IMG/VR virus record: IMGVR_UViG_2558860288_000010
DNA length: 52,982 nucleotides
Source of the DNA: a virus
Taxonomy: Duplodnaviria > Heunggongvirae > Uroviricota > Caudoviricetes
Strand: one strand, 5' to 3'
Part shown: piece after piece, positions 6,250-51,614 of the stretch
Layout: every line of letters starts with the position of its first letter
How positions within the stretch are numbered: the first letter of the stretch is position 1
The notes under the pieces: model-generated
The model's database searches: none
What the model was told of the DNA's origin: nothing
Seen by the model: the letters and a program-made list of their open reading frames with translations, nothing else
Program-made: the position numbers and the translations under genes

Positions 6250-6560
6250 TGGCAACCTCCGTTAGATAGCGGGTAACGCTACCACCGGAGTTCCTACGCT
6301 CATGGGTGGTAGCCCAGACGGGGGTAGGAATACCGGCTCTAACGGATACCGGCCAGCCCGAAAGCTGCCCCGCCTGGACTACCATAATTCTGATGATGTG
6401 GCGTAAAAAATAAAAACATGCAGTCAGCCACCACACCATAAATTTTAGGTGAGTCAAAGCTACGACACAAAAAAACACGCCTGGCGCGTGTTGTGTCGCC
6501 GTTAGATTACACGGGTTCCTACGCCCGGCTGCCGATTTTGCGGCAACCTTTAAACTATAT
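6250..6560 (-). ncRNA. Candidate C4/CI-type antisense RNA locus (satellite copy)
   Basis: Non-coding gap upstream of the small-gene/primase operon. Two hairpin-containing segments each carry ttcctacgc (6291..6299, 6517..6525), with a partly complementary gtaggaa segment between them (6324..6330), plus an 18-nt block tgccgattttgcggcaac (6530..6547) identical to 38449..38466. Strand inferred from the flanking genes. Confidence 0.35.
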
Positions 6561-11594: not shown

Positions 11595-12179
11595 TTATTC
11601 CATGACAGGGATTACCGGCCACTCAACATCAGGTGCAGTTGATGTATCAACACGGTTCAGCAACACCCGATACTTTTTCCAGGCTTCCAGCAATGAGGTT
11701 TCTACCTCCGTTGCGATCTCAAGATCTACCGCATCCTGAAGTGGCGCAATATGCTCACTGGCTACCCGCATGAGGCTGTTTTTTGTTTCTTCCGCCTCCC
11801 GTATCCGAAACAGTTTTTCTGCTTCTGCATCTTTCACCCAGGTTGTGCCGTTCCACTTCTGATATTCCCCATCCGGCGACAACCAGGTGACATTTTCCGG
11901 TAACGGGCCGAGTTCAGAAATAAATAACGCGTCCCCTGATGCCACGTCATAGACCGTTTTTTCCCTGTGGTCTTCAACGAGATGCCATGATGTATCCTCA
12001 CTGTTAAAAACAGCCACGAAGCCAGCCGGAATATCTGGCGGTGCAATATCGGTACTATTTGCAGGCAGACCTGTATGAGGGGGAATGTATGCATCACCTT
12101 CACCAATAAATTCATTGGTTCCGGCCAGCAGATTATAAATTTTTATAGTCCGTGGTTGTTCACTCATTCTGAATGCCAT
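11595..12179 (-). CDS. tfa: Tail fiber assembly protein
   Basis: 194-aa ORF directly downstream of the tail fiber gene; typical size and position. Confidence 0.65.
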
Positions 12180-36687: not shown

Positions 36688-36720
36688 GCTTCACCTCCGC
36701 AGAGGTCAAACGCTGGATGC

Positions 36721-36869
36721 AAAAAATCGCAGGTGCATCTCTGCATCTGTGAAGGGAGAAGAGAGTTTGGATTGTATGTGCGCATAAACGTCCCCGTTTA
36801 GCGCAGAAGTCACCGGAGTTGTTCAAGCTCCAATGGCATGATTATGGCTGGTTGATTATTGGAAATCAA
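36721..36869. repeat. 149-bp direct repeat, copy A (about 90% identical to 38664..38812)
   Basis: Base-by-base comparison of the two segments; contains hairpin-forming segments (gcgcataaacg / gtttagcgc). Confidence 0.85.
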
Positions 36870-36881
36870 ATGTGCTGAAAA

Positions 36882-37391
36882 TTAGTCTGCCAAGTCTTCC
36901 TCAGTCGCAACTGGGTAATTCCAAATATCAAAAAAAGCTATAGCCTCCTGCCATTTGCTCCATAAGTTATCAAGTACTTGTGTAGGTTCCGTACTTTTAA
37001 AAACAGAATCAGCCGCATCACCGTTATGAACTTCCTCGTACAGTTCCATTATTAGCAGATTAACAAAGTACTGTTTCAACATTAATGCCTGATTACCTTC
37101 TTTCTGCTGGCTATCCTGCTTGATGATCTCCATCGCCCGTACTAGGCACCTGATGATATCCGCTGCATCATTAACGCTCCATTCAGATCCGCGCTTATCT
37201 TTAGCTGATGAATTGGCTCTCTCAGCGCAAGCCTTTAAAGACTCATAAAGGTAAACTCTATTTTGTAGCTGCAGCGCTTTTTTTGACGTGTACCAACTTG
37301 CAAGCGCCGACCCCGCTGCGGCTAATGTGCCAAACGCAGAAATGCCTGCTGCTATTGCACTTAAGTCGGCACTGTCAAAGTTCCACATCAT
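36882..37391 (-). CDS. Hypothetical protein (169 aa) with an N-terminal hydrophobic segment
   Basis: ATG start; AIAAGISAFGTLAAAGSALASW looks like a signal or TM segment. Confidence 0.4.
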   Translation of the reverse strand: MMWNFDSADLSAIAAGISAFGTLAAAGSALASWYTSKKALQLQNRVYLYESLKACAERANSSAKDKRGSEWSVNDAADIIRCLVRAMEIIKQDSQQKEGNQALMLKQYFVNLLIMELYEEVHNGDAADSVFKSTEPTQVLDNLWSKWQEAIAFFDIWNYPVATEEDLAD

Positions 37392-37626
37392 CGTTACACC
37401 TTATATAAACACCCCTCAGTAATATCCAATAAGGTATGTGAACAATCAATATAATTTATATCCGTATCGGCACATAGCGATTTTAATGCTACTGATAATG
37501 GTATCTTTTAGATTATATCGTCCAGTTCCAGTACCCGTATTTTATGAAATGGACTCGCACATTACCAAAAAAAATGCCAGCACTTCCGTCATCGCAGAAT
37601 GCTGGCAGTATTTCTAACTAGTGACT

Positions 37627-38235
37627 TTATTGCAACAGATTCTGACGGAAATATGGTAACACACGACTCCACTTATCATCCTGCCACGGTTGGAATTTTA
37701 CATGCGCCGTTTCTCTGGCAAGGATTTCTCGCGCCCTGTTGAGTATCCGAGGATATTCTTGTTCGATTGAAGTGAATCTACCTGCTTCGCGATGCTCTGC
37801 GACCTGAAGAAGGGGCGTAACGTTCTGGCAGGCGGTTAACATCGTATCACTTGCTCGCCATAACCAGGCGAGTGTGCAAAGTTCGTTATCAGTGAATTGT
37901 TTTGTGATTGGGGATTGTTGAACTTCTCGATCGAGAATATCCAGAACCCAGCGGCGGAATTCTTTGGCCACAGGAGTACGAGCAAACATGGCGATCAAAT
38001 GGGCTCCGCGAAGGCTAAATACTCGAGACTCCTGCATTCCACGAGGGGTGGTCACTTTGACCACCCTTGTCATCATATCTGTGAATTCATCTGAGTGCCG
38101 AGAGTAAATGCGCTGAACTGCTTTATCGTCCGCATATTCCAGTGCTAAACCAACTTCAGTGGCAGTAAGCCAAATTCTGTTATTGTGGCAAATCGGGGTA
38201 AACGTCGTTTTGTGGAATGCTAATTGAGTAGTCAT
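37627..38235 (-). CDS. Phage antirepressor-like protein (putative)
   Basis: 202 aa; N-terminus resembles antirepressor/Bro-N-type proteins as recalled, and the gene sits directly downstream of the C4-like structured region (P1 c4-ant arrangement). Confidence 0.45.
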   Translation of the reverse strand: MTTQLAFHKTTFTPICHNNRIWLTATEVGLALEYADDKAVQRIYSRHSDEFTDMMTRVVKVTTPRGMQESRVFSLRGAHLIAMFARTPVAKEFRRWVLDILDREVQQSPITKQFTDNELCTLAWLWRASDTMLTACQNVTPLLQVAEHREAGRFTSIEQEYPRILNRAREILARETAHVKFQPWQDDKWSRVLPYFRQNLLQ

Positions 38236-38239
38236 AGTA

Positions 38240-38480
38240 TCACCTCATCAGGTTAACCATCACCACCAACGACGCCAATCGACTGGTGGTGAACTGTGTA
38301 AGGTTGGCGTAACCGGCTACTCAAACCCGGCGCTTCCGAAGAAGCCCTCACACAGCCCACCATAATTTGGGCATAGCCGTGCTTAGCGCACAAAAAAACC
38401 GCTTAACGCGGTATGCGTTGAGTAGTATCCCGGGACGCCAATCCCGTGTGCCGATTTTGCGGCAACGCACAGAATATAGC
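38240..38480 (-). ncRNA. Candidate C4/CI-type antisense RNA locus (prophage copy)
   Basis: Non-coding leader upstream of the antirepressor-like gene. Two hairpin-containing segments each carry acgccaat (38272..38279, 38435..38442), with a partly complementary ttggcgt segment between them (38304..38310), plus the shared 18-nt block at 38449..38466. Confidence 0.35.
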
Positions 38481-38663
38481 GCCGGATAAATCATGTCGTC
38501 AACCCCAGTAAATGGACACCATGATGATCACAGCCATAGCTGCTACAACAGTTACAACTACCTCAGGCCAAAACATAACGATTTCCATATCACCTTTAGC
38601 CGCCAGACGAATAGAGACTCCCAATTCTGGCTGTCGAAGTAAAACACCGAATGTAAAAAATCG

Positions 38664-38812
38664 TAGGTGCATTTCTGCATCTGTGAATGGAGATGAGAGT
38701 TTGGATTGTGTGTGCGCATAAACGTCCCCGTTTAGCGCAGAAGTCACCGGAGTTTTTTAGGCTCCGATGACATGATTATGGCGAGTTGATTATGATGAAT
38801 CAATAGGTTCTT
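38664..38812. repeat. 149-bp direct repeat, copy B
   Basis: About 90% identical to 36721..36869. Confidence 0.85.
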
Positions 38813-38895
38813 ATGTCAAATGAACACTAGATCCAAAGGAGGGTAACAATTATCATAGCCAATGAGATTAATCTCATTTTTAATAAGGAAATTTC

Positions 38896-40017
38896 ATGAA
38901 ATATTTCTCAACTGGTTTTTATGTTTCAAACTCCACATCTCTAGCTGAGATCTTTAATGAATGTTTTTCTTGGGTAAACGACTCACCACATACAACTTTT
39001 ATTCCAGCACAATTAGTATGTGATTATAAAAGCGAGGAGTACTTCATAGAGTCTAAAAATGAAAGAATTGATATAATAACTTATAAAAACAAAGATACTA
39101 GTTTAGGCTGTTTTAGGTATTCGAAAATATCTGAGCCACACAAATGGGTAACAGATATTTCAATTAATAAAAATCTCAAAACTGATACCATGTGGATTCA
39201 GGTGGAATCTAGCGTTGTAAGCCAAGATGCAGCTTATCTAGCCCCGCAACCTAAGAAACCATTAGTTGTTATGAGATTGATTGATAAATTTTCTGGTGGT
39301 CTTGATGATATTTTCAAGGTGTCAGTCGAACCTCATTCCTTAGATGATACTGATGAACATTTAAATATAGCAGCTAAAGTTATAAATGGTGAAACTGACA
39401 ACAGACTACCAATAATATACGTTAGCTCCAAGTATTTTTTTAATGAACATGCTCACAATATCATCCCAGAACGCCTTGCAAGAAAGGTATGCGGATTAGC
39501 ACATGTATTAATTGAGCCTAGCAATAGACTATTTTCTATTAAGCTAAAAAATGAGACAAATGCTAAAAATGCCTATGCTGGTGCTGTTGGTATCTATTGG
39601 CCACGGGGTCAAAATATCAGTTTTTATCGCCGTGGTGAGAAAACCGCAAAAGAATTTGAAGATGAGTTATTTGATGATGTTGTAAGAGCTACGACTACAA
39701 TGGCTCCTGTCTCAGATAGTGGATGGAGTGAGATACAAACCAGAAAAACGAAAGACTCTATTAACTCACTCAAAGAAAGAGGAGAATACACACGCGAACT
39801 GATGGCGCTTTACGAAGCCGATAATGTTGCGAAAGATGACCAAATAGAAGATCTTAAGCATAAGATCTCCTCTTTAGAGCACAGAGTACGCACTCTTCAA
39901 TCACAAGCTTCAGCCCAAGGAAGCATTGTGCTTAATGCTGGTGAAGAGACTGATTTTTTTGATGGAGAAATCAAAAATATAATTATTGACGCACTAAAAA
40001 CTGCCATAAAAAAATAA
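38896..40017 (+). CDS. Hypothetical AT-rich 373-aa protein in reverse orientation to the surrounding early genes; possibly truncated
   Basis: ATG with AAGGAA RBS; C-terminal coiled-coil-like region. The stop follows a run of seven A's (40008..40014). Confidence 0.55.
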   Translation: MKYFSTGFYVSNSTSLAEIFNECFSWVNDSPHTTFIPAQLVCDYKSEEYFIESKNERIDIITYKNKDTSLGCFRYSKISEPHKWVTDISINKNLKTDTMWIQVESSVVSQDAAYLAPQPKKPLVVMRLIDKFSGGLDDIFKVSVEPHSLDDTDEHLNIAAKVINGETDNRLPIIYVSSKYFFNEHAHNIIPERLARKVCGLAHVLIEPSNRLFSIKLKNETNAKNAYAGAVGIYWPRGQNISFYRRGEKTAKEFEDELFDDVVRATTTMAPVSDSGWSEIQTRKTKDSINSLKERGEYTRELMALYEADNVAKDDQIEDLKHKISSLEHRVRTLQSQASAQGSIVLNAGEETDFFDGEIKNIIIDALKTAIKK

Positions 40018-40315
40018 AAATGAATTTGGTAGAAGCTACCATATCTTATCATCCCTAATTGCCAATAATGAATACAATAAAGAAACCGAGAGTCGCCGCC
40101 AATTACTTAAAAGGACTTTAACAGGTTACAGAAGCATGGATAGCGCAACACAAAGAAATTTAAAGGACTTAGGTTTCAGTGCGTCAAGCGATGGAAAACA
40201 CTGGAAGTTAACATATAATGAAGACCCTCGATATTCCTATATTTTACCTAAAACAGGAAGTGACCACAGAGGTTCTTTAAATGCTATCTCGGATATAGCA
40301 AACATTATTTTCTAA
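40016..40315 (+). pseudogene. Out-of-frame downstream continuation (about 100 codons) of the 373-aa gene
   Basis: Open frame from 40016 to the TAA at 40313..40315, with no ATG until 40135 and no RBS; a 1-nt change in the A7 run would fuse it to the upstream gene. Confidence 0.3.
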
Positions 40316-40323
40316 TAAATTTC

Positions 40324-40349
40324 AATAGCACTCACAAATGAGTGCTATT
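40324..40349. terminator. Hairpin between convergent genes
   Basis: aatagcactc-acaaat-gagtgctatt, a perfect 10-bp stem. Confidence 0.4.
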
Positions 40350-40366
40350 GTTGCCACTGAATTACT

Positions 40367-40621
40367 CTATTTAAATTCAACTTTTATCCCTTTGTTTAGC
40401 AGGGCATCAGAAACTGCCTTTTTTGTAACATTTATCCCTGCAAGCAATGCTTTATGCATTGGTCCCTTAAAAATTTCTACTTCTTCTTCAGTGAGTTTAG
40501 GCAATGTAATATAAATAACATCTTTCATCTGCTTGTTTTTATAGCATGAGCTTCTTGTGTGCTTACAATCGATATTTTCTTTATTTCCCAAAACATCATC
40601 CCCTTTATAATTCAGTTCCAC
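40367..40621 (-). CDS. Hypothetical small AT-rich protein
   Basis: ORF with alternative start and no clear RBS; lies between ren and the inserted reverse-oriented gene. Confidence 0.25.
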   Translation of the reverse strand: MELNYKGDDVLGNKENIDCKHTRSSCYKNKQMKDVIYITLPKLTEEEVEIFKGPMHKALLAGINVTKKAVSDALLNKGIKVEFK

Positions 40622-40685
40622 ACATCAATTATTTAGTTATCACGAATGTCGTAAAACTAAAATTAGTAACAATAATTGCTCATAC

Positions 40686-40973
40686 CTACTCTCTTCCATA
40701 TAAAGCCAACACCCGCTTCATCGCGGCACTTTGACGACACTCCTTAAAAATCAGATTCGTGCTCACCTTTCCTTCCCGTTCTTCTCTGGTAGCGAACCGG
40801 TAATACACCGTTCGCCAGACCTTACCATCAACGACCAGGATTCCTGACCGCGCCATTTTAGCCGCAGCCTGATTTATGCTGGTTACGGTTGCGCCTGTTA
40901 CCGCGGCAACGTCCTGCGCACAGAAGTTCTTATGAGTCCCCAGGTAATGAATAATTGCCTCTTTGCCCGTCAT
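40686..40973 (-). CDS. ren: Ren protein
   Basis: MTGKEAIIHYLGTHKNFCAQDVAAVTGATVTSINQAAAKMAR... is near-identical to lambda Ren as recalled. Confidence 0.85.
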   Translation of the reverse strand: MTGKEAIIHYLGTHKNFCAQDVAAVTGATVTSINQAAAKMARSGILVVDGKVWRTVYYRFATREEREGKVSTNLIFKECRQSAAMKRVLALYGRE

Positions 40974-41671
40974 ACACTTGCTCCTTTCAGCCCAAACTTA
41001 GCTTTGATTTCTGCGATCTTCGCCAGAGCCTGTGCACGATTTAGAGGTCTACCGCCCATAACAGGAAGTTGTTTTACTGGTTCAGGTATCGTCTCACCAC
41101 GGTTAATTCGCGCTGTCATACAGGTCAGTTCATCGGCAGCCTTGCGCCGTAATTCCGCGTCAGTCAGCGCATTGGCTCGCATGTTCTGGTACAGGTTGGT
41201 AACCAGCCAGTAGTGCGCGTTTGATTTCCACGGATAAGACTCTGCATCCGGATACAGCCCGCGCTTCCGGCAATACTCGTAAACCATATCAACCAGCTCG
41301 CTGGCGTTTGGCAGCCCGGCGGTAACGGATGCTTCTTCCCGGCACCAGGCGACAAACTGCCCGGGTGATGGCAGGAATGGTCGATTCTGCCGACGGGCTA
41401 CGCGCATTCCTGCGTTAACCTGTTCCATTGTGGTGATCCCGTTTTCCCGGAAAGCCAGAACCCACTGGCGGCGGATTTCGTTCAGTTCATTCTGGTCACG
41501 GTTAGCCAGGCTCGCCGGGAAAGTTGCCAGTAACTGGCTGAACACACCGTTGATGATCTGCGCTACCTGCTGTACCTGCGGCTTTTCGTCGTACTGTTCC
41601 GGCATGTTGTTGGCGATCCGACGCATCTGCTCACGGTCAAAGTTAACCATCTGTGCGGCGATGTTTTTCAT
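40970..41671 (-). CDS. P: Replication protein P (helicase loader)
   Basis: 233 aa, MKNIAAQMVNFDREQMRRIANNMPEQYDEKPQVQQVAQ... is near-identical to lambda P as recalled. Confidence 0.9.
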   Translation of the reverse strand: MKNIAAQMVNFDREQMRRIANNMPEQYDEKPQVQQVAQIINGVFSQLLATFPASLANRDQNELNEIRRQWVLAFRENGITTMEQVNAGMRVARRQNRPFLPSPGQFVAWCREEASVTAGLPNASELVDMVYEYCRKRGLYPDAESYPWKSNAHYWLVTNLYQNMRANALTDAELRRKAADELTCMTARINRGETIPEPVKQLPVMGGRPLNRAQALAKIAEIKAKFGLKGASV

Positions 41672-42597
41672 AAATCCACCCCGTAAATCCAGTCAGTGTT
41701 TGTCAGGTCGAGTTTTGGTTTGCTGGCTATCATGCCTGCCTGTTGCTTGTTACGGTTGATTTCGAGCTGGGTCCACTTGTCGCGGAGTTTGGCCGGACTC
41801 AGCACGTTACCGGACCAGAAGTTGTCCTGGCATGCCCAGCGGAACAGTACACACATGTCGCGGTGGTTACGTCCGTCACGTTCACGCATCAGGCGGATAT
41901 CGTTAGCCCACCCTGCAAAATTCGGTTTTCTGGCTGATGGCGCGATGGTCTTCACCATGTCAAACATCCACTCTGCGGCGGTCAGGTCTTCTGCTGTCCC
42001 CCACTTGCTGCCGCTCTGAATTGCAGCATCCGGTTTCACCACAGGAAGATCGTTTTCTGGTTGGTCAGAGGATTCGCCAGAATTCTCGGACGAAAAAGGT
42101 TTTATATTGTCTTTTGTTAGTTTGTCTTTTGTGTTTACCTGATTCGGGTAAACGCCTTTACCTGATTTGGGTAAACTTTTTTTACCTGATTCAGGTAAAT
42201 TTACCTCTTTCAGGTAAACTTTATTTTTCTTACCTGATTCGGGTAATGTTGACCATTCACTGACCACATTATTAATGCCGGTATTCCGCCCGCTCTGAAT
42301 AAAAATCCCACGCTTTACCAGAACACTTTTTGCAGCAGAACACTTGTGCGGCAATATCCCGGTTAACTCGGAAAGTTGCTCGTTGCTCACCCAATCCAGT
42401 TTTTTATTAAAGCCATATGTTTTGCGCATGACAGCCAGGAAGACCAGAAGCTGGTGCTGTGTTAATCCGGCCAGCATTACAGCTTCCAGCAACTCATTTG
42501 CAATGCGCGTATAACCATCATCGAGATCTGCCACGCGCGGCTCCTTTTGTGCCACATCCGGCACTGGAAAATTGAATATCTCAGCAGTGTTTGCCAT
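41668..42597 (-). CDS. O: Replication initiator, O-like, with ori iterons inside the coding sequence
   Basis: N-terminus ...RVADLDDGYTRIANELLEA...LLVFLAVMRKTYGFNKK resembles lambda O. Probable ATG at 42597; the track ORF extends to 42687. Confidence 0.7.
   Translation of the reverse strand: MANTAEIFNFPVPDVAQKEPRVADLDDGYTRIANELLEAVMLAGLTQHQLLVFLAVMRKTYGFNKKLDWVSNEQLSELTGILPHKCSAAKSVLVKRGIFIQSGRNTGINNVVSEWSTLPESGKKNKVYLKEVNLPESGKKSLPKSGKGVYPNQVNTKDKLTKDNIKPFSSENSGESSDQPENDLPVVKPDAAIQSGSKWGTAEDLTAAEWMFDMVKTIAPSARKPNFAGWANDIRLMRERDGRNHRDMCVLFRWACQDNFWSGNVLSPAKLRDKWTQLEINRNKQQAGMIASKPKLDLTNTDWIYGVDL
42135..42247. repeat. Origin iterons: five copies of about 19 bp TTACCTGATTCGGGTAAAC
   Basis: Counted directly at 42135, 42158, 42181, 42201 and 42229; each unit is itself an inverted repeat (TTACC...GGTAA). 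An AT-rich tract lies at 42100..42134. Confidence 0.7.
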
Positions 42598-42683
42598 AAT
42601 TCCTCCCGCAATGAGTGCGTTACGATTTGCACCTGAAAGTCGGCTCTGTTCCCGCAGACCGGCTTTCGCCATTTTTGAACCTG

Positions 42684-43229
42684 TCATATTGCCCCCAGCA
42701 TGGCGGTGACCATCGCCATCAATGGACCAGCCAGATCCGGGTCCACTCGAAACATCGACACAATGCCTTCACTCATCTCCTTCAGTTTCTGGTGGCGTGG
42801 TGCGTTGAGAATGACCGCCTGCTTTGCCTCACAGAGTTCCTTTTCCATTTCAGCCAGCCGAGCCATGAAGCTATCCTGCTCAACCAGGTGGCCGCGATAT
42901 TCCAGCGGTAGTACCGCCAGAATTGCCGGGGTCAGTTCACGCACGTTATTTCGGTATTTTTCAGAATCGAATTTGTTATCGAGGAAGCGGAACAGCTTCT
43001 GGCGTGCACGGCTGACATCATCAGGGAAATCGATAGTGCCGCCGCCCTGCTCCCGATACTCATTCACAATGAGTGTGGCAACGACATCCTGATTATCTTC
43101 AGCCGACCAGGCGCGGACGGCATCACGGATTTTTTCGTGGCCTGGCACCTGTTTTGTTTGAGAACGATTTATCACCGCAGTCGGGCTAAATCCGCTAGTC
43201 TGTTGGTATGTAAGTGGTTGCATAGTCAT
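42684..43229 (-). CDS. CII-like / YdaT-like early regulatory protein (putative)
   Basis: 181-aa ORF in the cII position between cro and O; ATG start. Confidence 0.35.
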   Translation of the reverse strand: MTMQPLTYQQTSGFSPTAVINRSQTKQVPGHEKIRDAVRAWSAEDNQDVVATLIVNEYREQGGGTIDFPDDVSRARQKLFRFLDNKFDSEKYRNNVRELTPAILAVLPLEYRGHLVEQDSFMARLAEMEKELCEAKQAVILNAPRHQKLKEMSEGIVSMFRVDPDLAGPLMAMVTAMLGAI

Positions 43230-43253
43230 TGCCTTATCAGTTAACGCCGCAGA

Positions 43254-43481
43254 TTAGGCGGCAGAATTACTCGCGTTAAACAATGGTGCGAGGTCGGGAC
43301 GAATATCTGCTGGTTTAATCTTTCCACCAGTGGCTGAGACAATTTTCATTACATAGCGGGCATCAATTCCGCCACCGTGTAGCCAACGCCAAACAGTGGG
43401 CTGGGCTACACCGCATAGATCTGCCAGTCGTTTTTGACTACCTGTAATACTGATTGCGAGTTGAATGGTTTGATTTGTCAT
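43254..43481 (-). CDS. cro: Cro-like HTH repressor
   Basis: MTNQTIQLAISITGSQKRLADLCGVAQPTVWRWL... is an HTH, divergent from cI. ATG at 43481. Confidence 0.6.
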   Translation of the reverse strand: MTNQTIQLAISITGSQKRLADLCGVAQPTVWRWLHGGGIDARYVMKIVSATGGKIKPADIRPDLAPLFNASNSAA

Positions 43482-43514
43482 TATCAATTCCTATTGGTAT
43501 TACAATGAATAAAT

Positions 43515-43579
43515 AATAGCAATACGTATTAACCATAACAATAGCAAAACGTGTTTTGACCATCAATACGCAAGCGTAT
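43515..43579. promoter_or_regulatory. Divergent cI/cro operator-promoter region
   Basis: Three dyad-symmetric sites: AATACGTATT (43521..43530), AAAACGTGTTTT (43546..43557) and ATACGCAAGCGTAT (43566..43579), with ATAGCAA(T/A)A half-site-like motifs. Confidence 0.5.
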
Positions 43580-43591
43580 AAATTAAAACTT

Positions 43592-44284
43592 ATGAAAAAA
43601 GAAACTCTTGCTGATCGCTTAAACCTAGCGATGGAACAATCTGGAATGTCTCAAGGCGCTCTTGCAAAGGCGTCTGGCGTAGCTCAACCCACAATCTGGA
43701 GACTGACAAGCGGCAACGCGCGCGGCTCAACAAAAATTGTTGAAATAGCTAATGCATTGGGTGTTCGAACAGAGTGGCTCTCATCAGGCATAGGCCCGAT
43801 GAGAAATGACGGTCAACAATTAGGGAAGCCTACTGCCAACCATCCCAAATACTTCAAGATTGACGTTCTTGACATAGAAGTAAGCGCTGGTCCTGGTGTC
43901 ATTAACCGCGAATTCGTAGAAGTTCTACGTTCAGTTGAGTACTCCCAGGACGATGCTCGCCATATGTTCGATGGCAGGAAGGCGGAAAATATCCGCATCA
44001 TTAACGTGCGCGGTGACAGTATGTCAGGGACGATCGAACCTGGTGACCTGCTGTTCGTTGATATCACAGTTAAATCTTTCGATGGCGATGGTATCTATGC
44101 GTTCCTGTACGACGACACAGCCCATGTTAAGCGCCTACAAATGATGAAGGACAAGCTATTGGTTATCTCTGATAACAAGAGCTACTCACCGTGGGACCCG
44201 ATCGAGAAAGACGAGATGAACCGGGTGTTTATCTTCGGGAAAGTCATTGGAAGCATGCCGCAGACGTATAGGAAGCATGGGTAG
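43592..44284 (+). CDS. cI: CI-type prophage repressor (HTH plus S24 LexA-like peptidase domain)
   Basis: N-terminal HTH (MSQGALAKASGVAQPTIWRL) and C-terminal autocleavage region with GDSM. ATG at 43592, with no obvious RBS, lies 13 nt after the last operator palindrome. The track start at 43556 is TTG inside the operators. Confidence 0.8.
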   Translation: MKKETLADRLNLAMEQSGMSQGALAKASGVAQPTIWRLTSGNARGSTKIVEIANALGVRTEWLSSGIGPMRNDGQQLGKPTANHPKYFKIDVLDIEVSAGPGVINREFVEVLRSVEYSQDDARHMFDGRKAENIRIINVRGDSMSGTIEPGDLLFVDITVKSFDGDGIYAFLYDDTAHVKRLQMMKDKLLVISDNKSYSPWDPIEKDEMNRVFIFGKVIGSMPQTYRKHG

Positions 44285-44386
44285 TTTTATTGCTAATGTT
44301 ATGTGTTTGTGAGATAGGCCAAATATAGTTGGCCACGGGACAAATTGTATGAGCGTATATTTATAGGAAAAACGGAAGCCATTACA

Positions 44387-44803
44387 ATGAATGGAAATAT
44401 ACATGCTGATTATTTTAAGTGGTGGTGTGGGACAGTTATAGTTGGTGCGATCCCAATTATAATTAGATTGATTTCATTCATGATTATAAAAAAAGACATT
44501 GAGCTTTTTAATATTACTGAGTTAGTATGCTTTGGTTTCGCCATACAAATATCAAGCATTTACTTTGGCATTGGTAAACCGAGTTTCAAAAGTGAAAATA
44601 AATTCATAGTAAATACAACCTTCTCCATTATTTTTATAGTGATTTTCTCTACTATATACATAATAAGCATGTTGGCAGAGGAACTTTTGGATTTAACATT
44701 CACCAAGATACTAGTAATAATTACATGCTTAATATCGCTATATATTGGACAAAACTCCGTTCAATGTGCTATTATAAATAATGATATTTTAACCAAGGAG
44801 TGA
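44387..44803 (+). CDS. Four-pass membrane protein (138 aa), first gene of the rex-slot cassette
   Basis: ATG at 44387. Hydrophobic segments VIVGAIPIIIRLISFMII, LVCFGFAIQISSIYFGI, TFSIIFIVIFSTIYIISML and ILVIITCLISLYIG. Very AT-rich. Confidence 0.5.
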   Translation: MNGNIHADYFKWWCGTVIVGAIPIIIRLISFMIIKKDIELFNITELVCFGFAIQISSIYFGIGKPSFKSENKFIVNTTFSIIFIVIFSTIYIISMLAEELLDLTFTKILVIITCLISLYIGQNSVQCAIINNDILTKE

Positions 44804-44805
44804 TT

Positions 44806-44982
44806 ATGTATTATTTAATGATCTTGCTCTTTATAATAACAGTTATCATTCCTGTATATCTTGCATTTCTCTCAAGAAATAACCTCAAAAAATATAAAGA
44901 CGCACTAGCGTCCATTGAAAACATAAGAAAGAAAAATAGTGAGCATTTTGCCGAGAAAGCAAAAGCACTTAGATATCGATAA
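44806..44982 (+). CDS. Small single-pass membrane protein (58 aa)
   Basis: ATG at 44806 with a strong AAGGAG RBS; translation MYYLMILLFIITVIIPVYLAFL then a charged tail. Confidence 0.45.
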   Translation: MYYLMILLFIITVIIPVYLAFLSRNNLKKYKDALASIENIRKKNSEHFAEKAKALRYR

Positions 44983-44993
44983 CAGGTATTACT

Positions 44994-45896
44994 ATGTCGT
45001 TAAAAAATATAATTTACATTGATTACGAAAAAGTTTACTCCCTCAGTTCACAGTTATTCGAAGGAGTTGTTCAATCAGCCGTAGAAGAGCAGGCATCAAC
45101 GCTATCAAACTCTGATGCGGTCGAGGTCAAAACGCAGACAAAATCTAGTAATACTAGTGATACAAATAAGCTATCGACTGTTATAAACCCGCATGACTAC
45201 CATTACTTGAAATTTGAAAAAGAACTGTTTCATAGAGGACTCATCAAATCAATCTCCTCTGGGGATTTTTATCCAGAGGAGATTGAATCAGGACAATTCG
45301 TAAAAATAAAATGTGCTATTGAAATTAATGATTATAAAAAACTAAAAGATACCACTAAAAATTTTACTGACCTTGGATATGCTATTCATTATGTTCACAA
45401 ACATGATGAATTAGAAAATATTGACATCTTGATTTCTGATAAGACAGCAAAGCCAAATGTAAAAAAAGATTTAAAAATACTTCGCGATAATTTATTAGAA
45501 CAAATAAAAGAAAGTGCCATGAAAAACAAAAAAGCTTTCTTTGACAACCTATCAATTGTTTTAAATTATGCTTATGGAGATGAGCTTGAAATATCACAAA
45601 AAATTAATGATTACAAATTTACATCTTTCTTAATTCGGGGATTTTTAAAGCTAACGCCAGAAATGTTAGTGAAACTATACTCCAGAAAAACGACCAGAGA
45701 ATTTACTATTGTTGGTATAGTAACGCAATCAGGTAAAGATACAATCAATAATACAGACTCAGAAAGAGCAATGATTGATATACGAAGTGCAGCATGGAAC
45801 ATGAATGATGCATTAGCAAATATCGAGTCAACGTTCTGTAAACCAACAGAAAATGAGTTTTTCATAGAACCTATCGCGTTGTACTCAGAAATTTAA
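44994..45896 (+). CDS. Hypothetical soluble protein (300 aa), third gene of the rex-slot cassette
   Basis: ATG start; AT-rich; no motif recognised; followed by a terminator. Confidence 0.55.
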   Translation: MSLKNIIYIDYEKVYSLSSQLFEGVVQSAVEEQASTLSNSDAVEVKTQTKSSNTSDTNKLSTVINPHDYHYLKFEKELFHRGLIKSISSGDFYPEEIESGQFVKIKCAIEINDYKKLKDTTKNFTDLGYAIHYVHKHDELENIDILISDKTAKPNVKKDLKILRDNLLEQIKESAMKNKKAFFDNLSIVLNYAYGDELEISQKINDYKFTSFLIRGFLKLTPEMLVKLYSRKTTREFTIVGIVTQSGKDTINNTDSERAMIDIRSAAWNMNDALANIESTFCKPTENEFFIEPIALYSEI

Positions 45897-45905
45897 TCAT
45901 TTGCA

Positions 45906-45932
45906 CCCGGCCACCGCGCCGGGTTTTCTTTT
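45906..45932 (+). terminator. Rho-independent terminator after the cassette
   Basis: cccggc-caccgc-gccggg stem-loop followed by ttttctttt. Confidence 0.6.
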
Positions 45933-46055
45933 GTTCCCTCCCCTCATCACACAAACCGTTCGAAAAACCACCACAACCTCCCTTCAGTTATCGCTATGCG
46001 ATGCAAGTCACAAAATTAATTCTTTTTGCTATCAAACAGTTAATATCAAAACACA

Positions 46056-46100
46056 TCAATCAATAGCAATAAGTATTGATACAACCATAGCAATAGCTAT
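46056..46100. promoter_or_regulatory. Candidate OL/pL operator region
   Basis: Dyads TCAATAgcaataagTATTGA (46060..46079) and ATAGCaataGCTAT (46087..46100) carry the same ATAGCAATA motif as the cI/cro operators; positioned upstream of the kil-gam-bet-exo block. Confidence 0.35.
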
Positions 46101-46296
46101 TATCACCATGTCGCAACAACACAACGATACGGCAACCACCTGATTCACCGTTGCGATGACCGCTTAGATCCGCAGCTTGAATTTCAGCAGGCTCCGGGGA
46201 GTGCGAGGGGTGAAGCGGACGCGTGAACGTCGGTGTGACCAGCTGAAATCAACTCAACACTTCATACCTTAGTCGCTTCAACGAGGCGGCTTAGTT

Positions 46297-46587
46297 ATGA
46301 CAACCGGCGGCCATCCACCGCCTGAATACGCGCAGAAGTCTCTATATGTTCAGCAGCCCAGCTTACGGGCAGGAGTTTTTATGGTTCATCAACATTACGG
46401 AACGCAGACCGTTAATCGAGGTGCGGTCATGCCAGGAATGCTGGTCAAACACAAAGATGGTACCTGGACTGCATCAGCTAATTTACGCGGACGGCTATAT
46501 CTGCATCGCGGCATCGAGCGCACTTATACCCGTGATTTGCTCGTGGAAGTTTTTCTCGACGGACGCGGTAACGGCCTGAATCACTAA
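46297..46587 (+). CDS. Hypothetical protein upstream of gam (kil/cIII position)
   Basis: 96-aa ORF; an overlapping 77-aa ORF in another frame (46346..46579) means the correct frame is uncertain. Confidence 0.25.
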
Positions 46588-50071: not shown

Positions 50072-50487
50072 GGCCTGCCAGCTTCTCAAGATATCCAGAC
50101 CTACAGCAATCATGTCAATCCAATAAATGGAGACTCCAAGTGGAAGAAGAAATCTTCACTCGTGAAGAGGCTGCGTCGTATCTGAAGGTAGACAAAGGCA
50201 CTATCACGCAGTGGATACGAAGTGGACGACTTCAAGCCGCAAAGATAAATCCAGATAAACCTAAAAGCCCATATCGCATTTGCAAATCAGACTGCATTGC
50301 GGCGCTTAAGTCTGTGAGACACAATAGCGCGGTGAATGCGGTTGATGTGCAGGAGGTTAAAGCATGTCAATCAAACTGCGCGGTGGCACATGGCACTGCG
50401 ATTTCGTCGCGCCAGATGGATCAAGAGTTAGACGCTCTCTTGAAACATCGGACAAGAGGCAAGCGCAAGAACTTCACGATCGTCTGA
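50068..50487 (+). CDS. xis: Excisionase-like HTH protein (putative Xis)
   Basis: Central segment REEAASYLKVDKGTITQWIRSGRLQAAKI is a typical excisionase-type HTH. Start uncertain (ATG 50068 or GTG 50140); the 3' end overlaps int by 124 nt. Confidence 0.45.
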   Translation: MRPASFSRYPDLQQSCQSNKWRLQVEEEIFTREEAASYLKVDKGTITQWIRSGRLQAAKINPDKPKSPYRICKSDCIAALKSVRHNSAVNAVDVQEVKACQSNCAVAHGTAISSRQMDQELDALLKHRTRGKRKNFTIV

Positions 50488-51524
50488 AAGCAGAAGCGTG
50501 GAGAGTAAAAAATCTCGGTGAATCACCGAAAAAGCTATTCAAGGAAGCCTGCATACGGTGGCTGCGAGAGAAAGCGGATAAGAAGTCCATTGATGATGAC
50601 AAGAGCATTATATCGTTCTGGATGTTGCACTTCAGAGAAACCATTCTCTCTGACATAACAACAGAAAAAATAATGGAGGCGGTAGACGGGATGGAAAACC
50701 GCCGCCATCGCCTGAACTGGGAGATGAGCCGGGATAGGTGTTTGCGGCTTGGCAAGCCAGTGCCGGAGTATAAACCAAAGCTGGCAAGCAAAGGAACGAA
50801 GACGCGGCATCTGGCAATACTTCGCGCTATTCTCAATATGGCTGTTGAATGGGGATGGCTTGACAGGGCGCCCAAAATATCAACACCACGCGTTAAGAAT
50901 GGACGAATCAGATGGCTTACAGAGGAGGAATCGAAGCGCCTGTTTGCAGAAATTGCTCCTCATTTCTTCCCTGTGGTCATGTTTGCAATCACGACAGGCC
51001 TTCGTCGTTCCAACGTTACAGACCTTGAGTGGTCACAGGTCGATCTGGATAAGAAAATGGCATGGATGCACCCTGATGAAACAAAAGCTGGCAATGCGAT
51101 CGGAGTTCCTCTTAACGAAACCGCATGCCAGATATTAAGAAAACAGCAGGGGCTCCATAAGAGATGGGTATTTGTCCACACCAAACCTGCCTACCGAAGC
51201 GACGGAACAAAAACAGCAGCGGTAAGGAAGATGAGAACCGACAGCAACAAGGCATGGAAGGGAGCGTTAAAGCGGGCAGGCATTAGCAACTTCCGCTTCC
51301 ATGACCTGAGGCATACCTGGGCAAGCTGGCTGGTTCAGTCCGGTGTCTCTCTTCTTGCACTTAAAGAGATGGGAGGATGGGAAACTCTCGAAATGGTTCA
51401 AAGATACGCCCACCTTTCAGCTGGGCATCTCACCGAGCACGCGAGCAAAATCGATGCGATTATAAGTCGCAATGGCACAAATACGGCACAAGAGGAGAAC
51501 GTAGTTTACTTAAATGCGAGGTAA
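50364..51524 (+). CDS. int: Tyrosine integrase (lambda-type)
   Basis: ATG with AGGAGG RBS; catalytic HDLRHTWAS and Tyr in VQRYAHL; ends 15 bp from the tRNA 3' end. Confidence 0.85.
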   Translation: MSIKLRGGTWHCDFVAPDGSRVRRSLETSDKRQAQELHDRLKAEAWRVKNLGESPKKLFKEACIRWLREKADKKSIDDDKSIISFWMLHFRETILSDITTEKIMEAVDGMENRRHRLNWEMSRDRCLRLGKPVPEYKPKLASKGTKTRHLAILRAILNMAVEWGWLDRAPKISTPRVKNGRIRWLTEEESKRLFAEIAPHFFPVVMFAITTGLRRSNVTDLEWSQVDLDKKMAWMHPDETKAGNAIGVPLNETACQILRKQQGLHKRWVFVHTKPAYRSDGTKTAAVRKMRTDSNKAWKGALKRAGISNFRFHDLRHTWASWLVQSGVSLLALKEMGGWETLEMVQRYAHLSAGHLTEHASKIDAIISRNGTNTAQEENVVYLNAR

Positions 51525-51538
51525 CTTATTGATTTAGA

Positions 51539-51614
51539 TGGTGCCGATAATAGGAGTCGAACCTACGACCTTCGCATTACGAATGCGCTGCTCTACCAAC
51601 TGAGCTATATCGGC
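51539..51614 (-). tRNA. thrW: tRNA-Thr (thrW-type), integration target
   Basis: Reverse complement reads GCCGATATAGCTCAGTTGGTAGAGCAGCGCATTCGTAATGCGAAGGTCGTAGGTTCGACTCCTATTATCGGCACCA (76 nt); its 3' 46 nt are duplicated at 11108..11153. Confidence 0.9.

Follow-up and report, generated by a model that had tools for sequence, protein, structure and literature searches.

A frameshifted allele of the phage-defense gene DS-10 in a lambdoid prophage, probably a recent loss-of-function pseudogene

The window analyzed here, i.e., the entire 52,982-nt stretch of tailed-phage DNA available as IMG/VR record IMGVR_UViG_2558860288_000010, contains an AT-rich cargo module that is composed of a defense gene and a convergent small ORF (Table 1). 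The initial annotation had located the gene between ren and the nin genes. This is correct; the gene is separated from ybcN of the nin region by an additional cassette (36860..38635). The defense gene is present as an ORF of 373 codons, which starts with the ATG at 38896, ends with the TAA at 40015-40017, and has a good ribosome-binding site, as had been noticed before. It is antisense to the early-right genes of the phage, which are all on the minus strand, and its GC content is 35.6%, as compared with 48.6% for the window.

Table 1. Features of the cargo module and its surroundings (positions refer to the window)
Feature	Position	Strand	Remarks
169-aa ORF	36882..37391	-	in 1.8-kb cassette
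Bro-N/P22_AR_C antirepressor-like ORF	37627..38235	-	in 1.8-kb cassette
C4 antisense RNA	38282..38367	-	in 1.8-kb cassette
isrK	38392..38464	-	in 1.8-kb cassette
Promoter-like site ATGACA-18-TATGAT	38767..38796	+	putative; pattern match only (consensus scan, 10/12 matches)
AT-rich cargo module (~1.9 kb)	38814..40695		defense gene and convergent 84-aa ORF, between ren and nin region
Shine-Dalgarno sequence AAGGA	38885..38889	+	6 nt upstream of ATG 38896; read from sequence
Truncated 373-aa ORF	38896..40017	+	DS-10 residues 1-371 followed by KK
A7 homopolymer	40008..40014	+	frameshift site; exactly A7, then T, then AAAA; A6 in intact alleles
+1-frame remainder	40016..40315	+	residues 374-472 of intact protein: helical linker and HicA-like alpha-beta3-alpha domain
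59-aa ORF	40136..40315	+	bare HicA-like domain; no convincing ribosome-binding site; from ORF list
Perfect hairpin	40323..40350		12-bp stem, 4-nt loop; terminator scan; separates convergent genes
Convergent 84-aa ORF	40367..40621	-	annotated CDS in RefSeq relatives
ren	40686..40973	-	early-right gene
P	40970..41671	-	early-right gene
O	41668..42687	-	early-right gene

The stop codon of the 373-aa ORF directly follows the A7 run, as had been described. The +1 frame is open from position 40010 to a TAA at 40313-40315. The earlier description of this frame as open to 40315 and devoid of a ribosome-binding site was accurate, but its first ATG is located at 40136 rather than at 40135. The 59-aa ORF that starts at this ATG is what gene callers make of the broken gene, and it was called on 22 contigs with broken alleles. 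When one A is removed, the two frames are computed to fuse into a single protein of 472 aa, in agreement with the ~470 aa anticipated. A perfect hairpin does separate the gene from the small convergent ORF, but its stem comprises 12 bp and not, as first reported, 10 bp at 40324..40349. With a predicted energy of -17 kcal/mol (z = -4.6 relative to shuffled sequences), it probably functions as a bidirectional terminator. Besides the A7 tract, the gene contains two T7 runs (39435..39441 and 39954..39960), which makes three homopolymers of at least seven nucleotides where 0.9 would be expected from shuffled sequences. A common variant, 39954 T>C, breaks up one of these T7 runs.

The 84-aa ORF had no match in Pfam, PADLOC, PHROGs or NCBIfam. 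It is named "phospholipase D-like domain-containing protein" in one RefSeq record and hypothetical protein in others. It was considered as a partner or antitoxin of the defense protein, and this option was rejected because the ORF is absent beside all distant homologues fetched. This absence argues that the defense protein acts alone.

In megablast searches, the gene was matched over its full length in 24 of 5,426 complete E. coli genomes, with 98.4-99.8% identity, and all of these matches are one base shorter than the window. The cargo module is spanned by matches in only these 24 genomes, whilst its flanks are common: in another 144 records, the match is confined to query positions 1-64 (left of ~38813), and in ~2,900 genomes it is confined to the part from ~40695-40707 rightwards, in ren and P. 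A comparison of the A-run in relatives, as initially proposed, revealed A6 in each of the three loci that were read (L001-L003), in the form of AAAAAAT or, in the lineage of L003, AAAAAAC. These loci contain an intact CDS, annotated in RefSeq, for a 472-aa protein (WP_042028685.1 or WP_000873394.1). Apart from the extra A, the CDS of the window is identical to the intact copy in L001. Judged from this comparison, the frameshift is derived and very recent; a recent frameshift had been one of the possibilities put forward initially, and it is strongly supported.

The intact form is also the form in which the protein is found in other bacteria. A protein search yielded 75 homologues, almost all of full length (466-482 aa), from Escherichia, Salmonella, Edwardsiella, Pantoea, Dickeya, Serratia, Pseudomonas, Stutzerimonas, and Caulobacter. 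A profile search among 1.84 billion representatives produced 3,446 relatives, including 1,037 with E values <= 1e-30, and the best 150 of the 3,446, which are the matches listed, are almost all full length as well (~460-480 aa). In an alignment of 47 sequences, the best-conserved region is a C-terminal stretch, GF..GKHxKL..D.RY..LPKTGSDxRG.LN, and 6 of the 19 invariant columns (G426, F427, H435, D443, R445, and Y446) fall within the last 60 residues. Thus, the frame downstream of the A-run is conserved at the protein level. The initial annotation had stated that its reading would fall if this frame lacked such conservation, which is not the case. When the downstream codons were compared with those of a 77%-identical homologue, 39 of the differences were synonymous and 30 were non-synonymous.

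The homologues occur in settings that are typical of defense genes. As single-gene cargo, they adjoin the integrase gene in small integrative islands with a DUF927 protein. One homologue is located at the end of a Pseudomonas prophage, where its neighbor is a HipA_C kinase gene, and another homologue has a defense-island-like neighborhood with Schlafen/AlbA_2-HATPase_c_4, radical-SAM, and HSP70-like genes. In five loci from Enterobacterales assemblies and one metagenome (L011-L015), a 77%-identical homologue (P0004) forms the terminal cargo of an integrase/DUF927 island, which is inserted at two chromosomal sites, one adjoining dsbD/cutA and the other an ornithine-decarboxylase-type gene. Hence, the same defense gene travels both on satellite-like islands and on lambdoid prophages.

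The intact gene is already known. In the supplements of the DefensePredictor study (Science 2026, PMC13092281), system DS-10 with code name "ZAPB" is WP_087897267.1, a 472-aa protein from an E. coli genome, for which HHpred detected a HicA domain at residues 416-471 with a probability of 0.91. Expressed from its native promoter in strain MG1655, DS-10 lowered the plaque count of phage Bas1 from 3x10^6 to 30 PFU, corresponding to an EOP of 10^-5, i.e., a 10^5-fold drop, and it reduced the plaque size of lambda and Bas3 (PMC13092281). According to the main text of that paper, the newly validated defense domains include "a HicA mRNA interferase"; the mechanism of DS-10 is not described there (PMC13092281). 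After repair of the frameshift, the window protein is identical to WP_087897267.1 at 395 of 399 positions over the part that is printed in the supplement. The four substitutions are T62N, V124I, S133P, and I215T, with the residue of the window given first. Both proteins are 472 aa long when the window copy is repaired, and both are encoded by a single gene of E. coli. However, the window copy has A7 instead of A6 and does not form a single 472-aa ORF. On the basis of the identity over the printed part, the window gene is, by its sequence, a frameshifted allele of a known and validated defense gene that has already been described. The role in phage defense or toxicity that had been suspected is thereby confirmed for the intact gene, which is the experimentally validated system DS-10. 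A literature search with the RefSeq accessions of the window-type alleles gave no match.

An intact relative was modeled with AlphaFold (pLDDT 82.8). The model shows a beta-rich, SRPBCC-like N-terminal domain (residues 1-110), an alpha/beta domain with a thioredoxin fold but without a CxxC motif (residues ~120-270), and a long helix or coiled coil (residues 277-335). The latter is followed by a helical linker, of which residues 374-415 are encoded in the +1-frame part, and by a C-terminal alpha-beta3-alpha unit resembling HicA (residues 416-470). The truncated ORF retains everything from the SRPBCC-like domain through the thioredoxin-fold domain and the coiled coil to the beginning of the linker. 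By contrast, truncation after residue 373 removes the last 99 residues, including the linker and the whole HicA-like domain, and the allele is therefore most probably a loss-of-function allele, whose 373-aa product would most probably be unable to defend. Foldseek searches against the PDB revealed no full-length solved relative, only weak matches of the SRPBCC and PDI-b' types, and searches with the whole protein against Pfam, NCBIfam, and the sequences and profiles of PDB chains returned only coiled-coil noise. In PHROGs, only the unnamed family phrog_2053 was matched, by the C-terminus, and no copy of the defense gene was found in the phage collection.

The C-terminal domain resembles HicA (PF07927) in its dsRBD-like alpha-beta-beta-beta-alpha fold and in a conserved His at the start of beta-1. 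This residue, H435, is invariant in the 47 aligned sequences, and hhalign paired it with the His of the "NHLKL" motif in E. coli HicA. The domain of the window did not match PF07927, for which the best score, 17.3 bits against a gathering cut-off of 27, was obtained with a divergent member (P0075). Unlike HicA of the HicAB type II toxin-antitoxin systems, DS-10 has no HicB partner, nor does it have any conserved neighbor across its genomic contexts. Fused forms of HicA are known, but none of classes 11-14 of Gerdes (2024), which comprise HicB fusions, an alpha-helical N-terminus, and SMC, matches the N-terminal architecture of DS-10.

The N-terminal part points to a relationship with HEC-07. 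The PADLOC profile of this system (PDLC04161), for which PADLOC has no curated cut-off, was matched at E 1e-9 and 35.8 bits by residues 83-334 (profile positions 107-366 of 553). HEC-07, which was active against phages in E. coli, is reported to be built from an AdoMetDC-like domain at the N-terminus, a thioredoxin-like domain that has no CxxC, and, at the C-terminus, an RNase of the RelE type (10.1101/2024.01.29.577857). In both systems, a single protein provides the defense; its N-terminal domain is rich in beta structure, its thioredoxin-like domain is devoid of CxxC, and it ends in an RNase-toxin domain. They differ in that HEC-07 is ~550 aa long and ends in a RelE-family domain (BECR fold) with His543. 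Such an end is not found in the window gene, which has its own HicA-like C-terminus of the dsRBD-type alpha-beta3-alpha fold, and the profile match stops before it. An hhalign comparison of a HEC-07-family fragment with the family alignment gave an E value of 0.019, which is not significant alone. When the 133 N-terminal residues printed in the preprint supplement were used to search for full-length HEC-07, only fragments were retrieved. The relationship to HEC-07 is therefore distant, and it is based on the PADLOC profile match together with the shared fold description.

How widespread is the frameshift? Contigs with the various alleles were counted by exact-sequence look-ups on each protein background. 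Intact (A6) alleles were present on 450, 250, 199, 77, 47, and 8 contigs of the respective backgrounds, truncated A7 alleles on 5-7, 3, and 2 contigs, A5 alleles on one contig each of two backgrounds, and A8 on none. Hence, frameshifted alleles make up ~1% (~10-12 A7 and two A5 alleles as opposed to ~1,030 intact contigs). The A7 tract was confirmed in L004-L010, L025-L028, L031, and L032. It resides on at least three haplotypes, which are distinguished by SNPs at 39292, 39929, and 39954 upstream and at 40475 and 40546 downstream of the run, and it occurs in prophages with as well as without the upstream 1.8-kb cassette. Since at least three haplotypes carry it, either the A7 insertion arose repeatedly or short gene-conversion tracts moved it from one haplotype to another. 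Other lesions are found as well. The allele in L030 lacks an A at the position equivalent to 39996 of the window, within an A5 run (39994..39998), and the databases hold further broken forms, namely N-terminally truncated proteins of 347 aa and forms shortened to 286 and 117 aa; P0091 and P0017 are truncated forms of this kind. Together, the deletion in L030 and these truncated forms indicate that the gene has been inactivated in several independent ways. One A7 carrier, L005 (GCA_044683585.1; a contig of 4,324 bp), deviates in its surroundings: ren is joined directly to kil/gam/recT (window position 41378 to 46324), which means that the replication and immunity region was deleted or that the contig is chimeric.

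Considering these data, we think it very likely that the locus is a moron of a lambdoid prophage that is expressed in the lysogen and encodes DS-10, and that the homopolymer at codons 372-373, a hotspot of replication slippage, has recently grown from A6 to A7, which created what is probably a loss-of-function pseudogene. That the extra A is an error of sequencing or assembly can hardly be credited. Some sequencing platforms often produce spurious indels in homopolymers, and the single A5 genome record (a contig of 4.79 Mb) may be such a case. However, exactly the same 373-aa A7 product is encoded in seven independent assemblies, two from NCBI and five from independent SRA runs, and it has its own RefSeq entry, WP_023568606.1. 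Moreover, L004, L006, and L008 share 100% identity with the window over 1.6-7.1 kb; for the A7 carrier GCA_000498235.1 (contig AHHN01000020.1), one of the seven assemblies and probably the source of the window or a clone-mate, the identity of 100% extends over 7,122 bp. It is just as difficult to believe that the split has generated a two-part, toxin-antitoxin-like system of a 373-aa sensor and a separately translated HicA-like peptide of 59 aa. The ORF for this peptide is intact and its ATG is positioned just ahead of the HicA-like domain, but it is not preceded by a ribosome-binding site, and the 118 nt between the upstream stop codon and the ORF make translational coupling impossible. In addition, the helical linker (residues 374-415) would be missing from such a pair, and no naturally split homologue is present among the matches listed. 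Very improbable, too, is a recoding of the A7 allele, in which either programmed +1 frameshifting or transcriptional slippage along the A-run would still yield full-length protein. A stop codon directly after the run would suit such recoding, poly-A tracts permit some slippage of RNA polymerase, and tRNA-Lys is shift-prone, so that a small fraction of full-length product is conceivable. Yet, efficient transcriptional slippage in E. coli requires ~9 or more A or T residues. The frameshift site is not conserved, every homologue that was read being in frame, and upstream of the run no stimulatory Shine-Dalgarno-like element was seen; the only stem-loop in the vicinity is one of six pairs at 40027..40041. 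Furthermore, the A_AAA_AAA sequence favors a shift to -1, and the conserved frame can only be reached by +1 (or -2). Programmed -1 frameshifting was rejected, as the -1 frame ends after 14 codons; the ribosomal slippage that was entertained initially is thus not supported.

More difficult to dismiss is phase variation, in which the A-tract would serve as a contingency switch and reversible slippage between A6, A7, and A5 would toggle a costly abortive-infection toxin. The initial annotation had raised phase-variable expression, and the proposal is weakly supported insofar as A7 and A5 recur on several haplotypes: at least three haplotypes, told apart by SNPs upstream as well as downstream of the run, carry A7, and A5 occurs on two protein backgrounds, so that the changes are recurrent and go in both directions, and A5, A6, and A7 tracts were all detected on the same protein backgrounds. 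However, with only 6-7 nt, the tract falls short of the established poly-A/T switches, for which 8-9 nt is usually the minimum. Nor is it conserved: L003 reads AAAAAAC, and the more distant homologues do not have the run. Frameshifted alleles remain at the low frequency given above, backgrounds represented by 77 and 47 contigs have no A7 at all, and the lesions elsewhere in the gene (39996 in L030; P0091 and P0017) fit plain decay. Altogether, we regard a phase-variation switch as unlikely. A milder form of it seems, if anything, slightly less likely: the A6 tract may be kept in the prophage as a low-frequency, reversible on/off switch of an abortive-infection gene, by which lysogens hedge protection against the cost or self-toxicity of an RNase, with the recurrent A7 and A5 alleles as its footprint. 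The recurrence of A7 on several haplotypes could reflect more than simple decay. Nevertheless, recurrent homopolymer indels are not by themselves a sign of a new regulatory mechanism, and the allele pattern is that of an accessory gene that is dispensable and has a homopolymer as its mutational hotspot.

For intact DS-10, we infer an RNase activity, autoinhibition, a trigger, and abortive infection. The N-terminal SRPBCC-like and thioredoxin-fold domains, held together by a dimerizing coiled coil, would act as a sensor and as an inhibitor in cis. Upon infection, the C-terminal HicA-type endoribonuclease may be released, and its cleavage of RNA would then stop translation in an abortive-infection-type response. 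By analogy, this would resemble fused toxin-antitoxin defenses such as CapRel(SJ46), in which, as summarized by Gerdes (2024), a regulatory and sensor part restrains a translation-blocking toxin of the same polypeptide until it is bound by a phage protein. The resemblance is meant as a working analogy only: the proteins are not related in sequence or fold, and the toxin of CapRel is N-terminal and pyrophosphorylates tRNA. As compared with HEC-07, the scaffold may have been kept and the RNase exchanged, i.e., a HicA-type in place of a RelE-type enzyme.

These considerations have practical consequences. The 373-aa protein WP_023568606.1 and the orphan 59-aa ORF are best annotated together as a frameshifted DS-10 pseudogene, and strains with the A7 allele should be scored as being without DS-10 defense. 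The natural A7 allele also provides a ready effector-less control when the requirement for the HicA-like domain is addressed. Apparently, DS-10 and HEC-07 share a sensor scaffold (beta-rich plus thioredoxin-like) and differ in their RNase, which points to effector swapping and offers a handle on the design of single-protein defenses. Finally, the recurrent homopolymer indels illustrate how defense genes disappear from populations.

The prophage has some other features of interest. The 1.8-kb cassette upstream of the defense gene is bordered by direct repeats of 158 bp (36702..36859 and 38636..38793) that are 88.6% identical, and it is absent from L001-L003, L005, and L007. With its isrK and C4 antisense RNAs and its antirepressor-like ORF (Table 1), it looks like a c4-ant immunity module of the P1/P7 type. 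A second pair of isrK and C4 antisense RNA is located at 6302..6547 on the minus strand (Rfam scores of 71.8 and 81 bits), and the prophage thus possesses two c4-type antisense modules. The late region contains a full-length Rfam match (208.6 bits) to IS009 RNA (RF02111) at 11638..11836 on the minus strand. At the end of the prophage, a tRNA-Thr (CGT) gene (51539..51614, minus strand) adjoins an ORF of 386 codons (50364..51524, plus strand); these may represent the integration site and the integrase, respectively.
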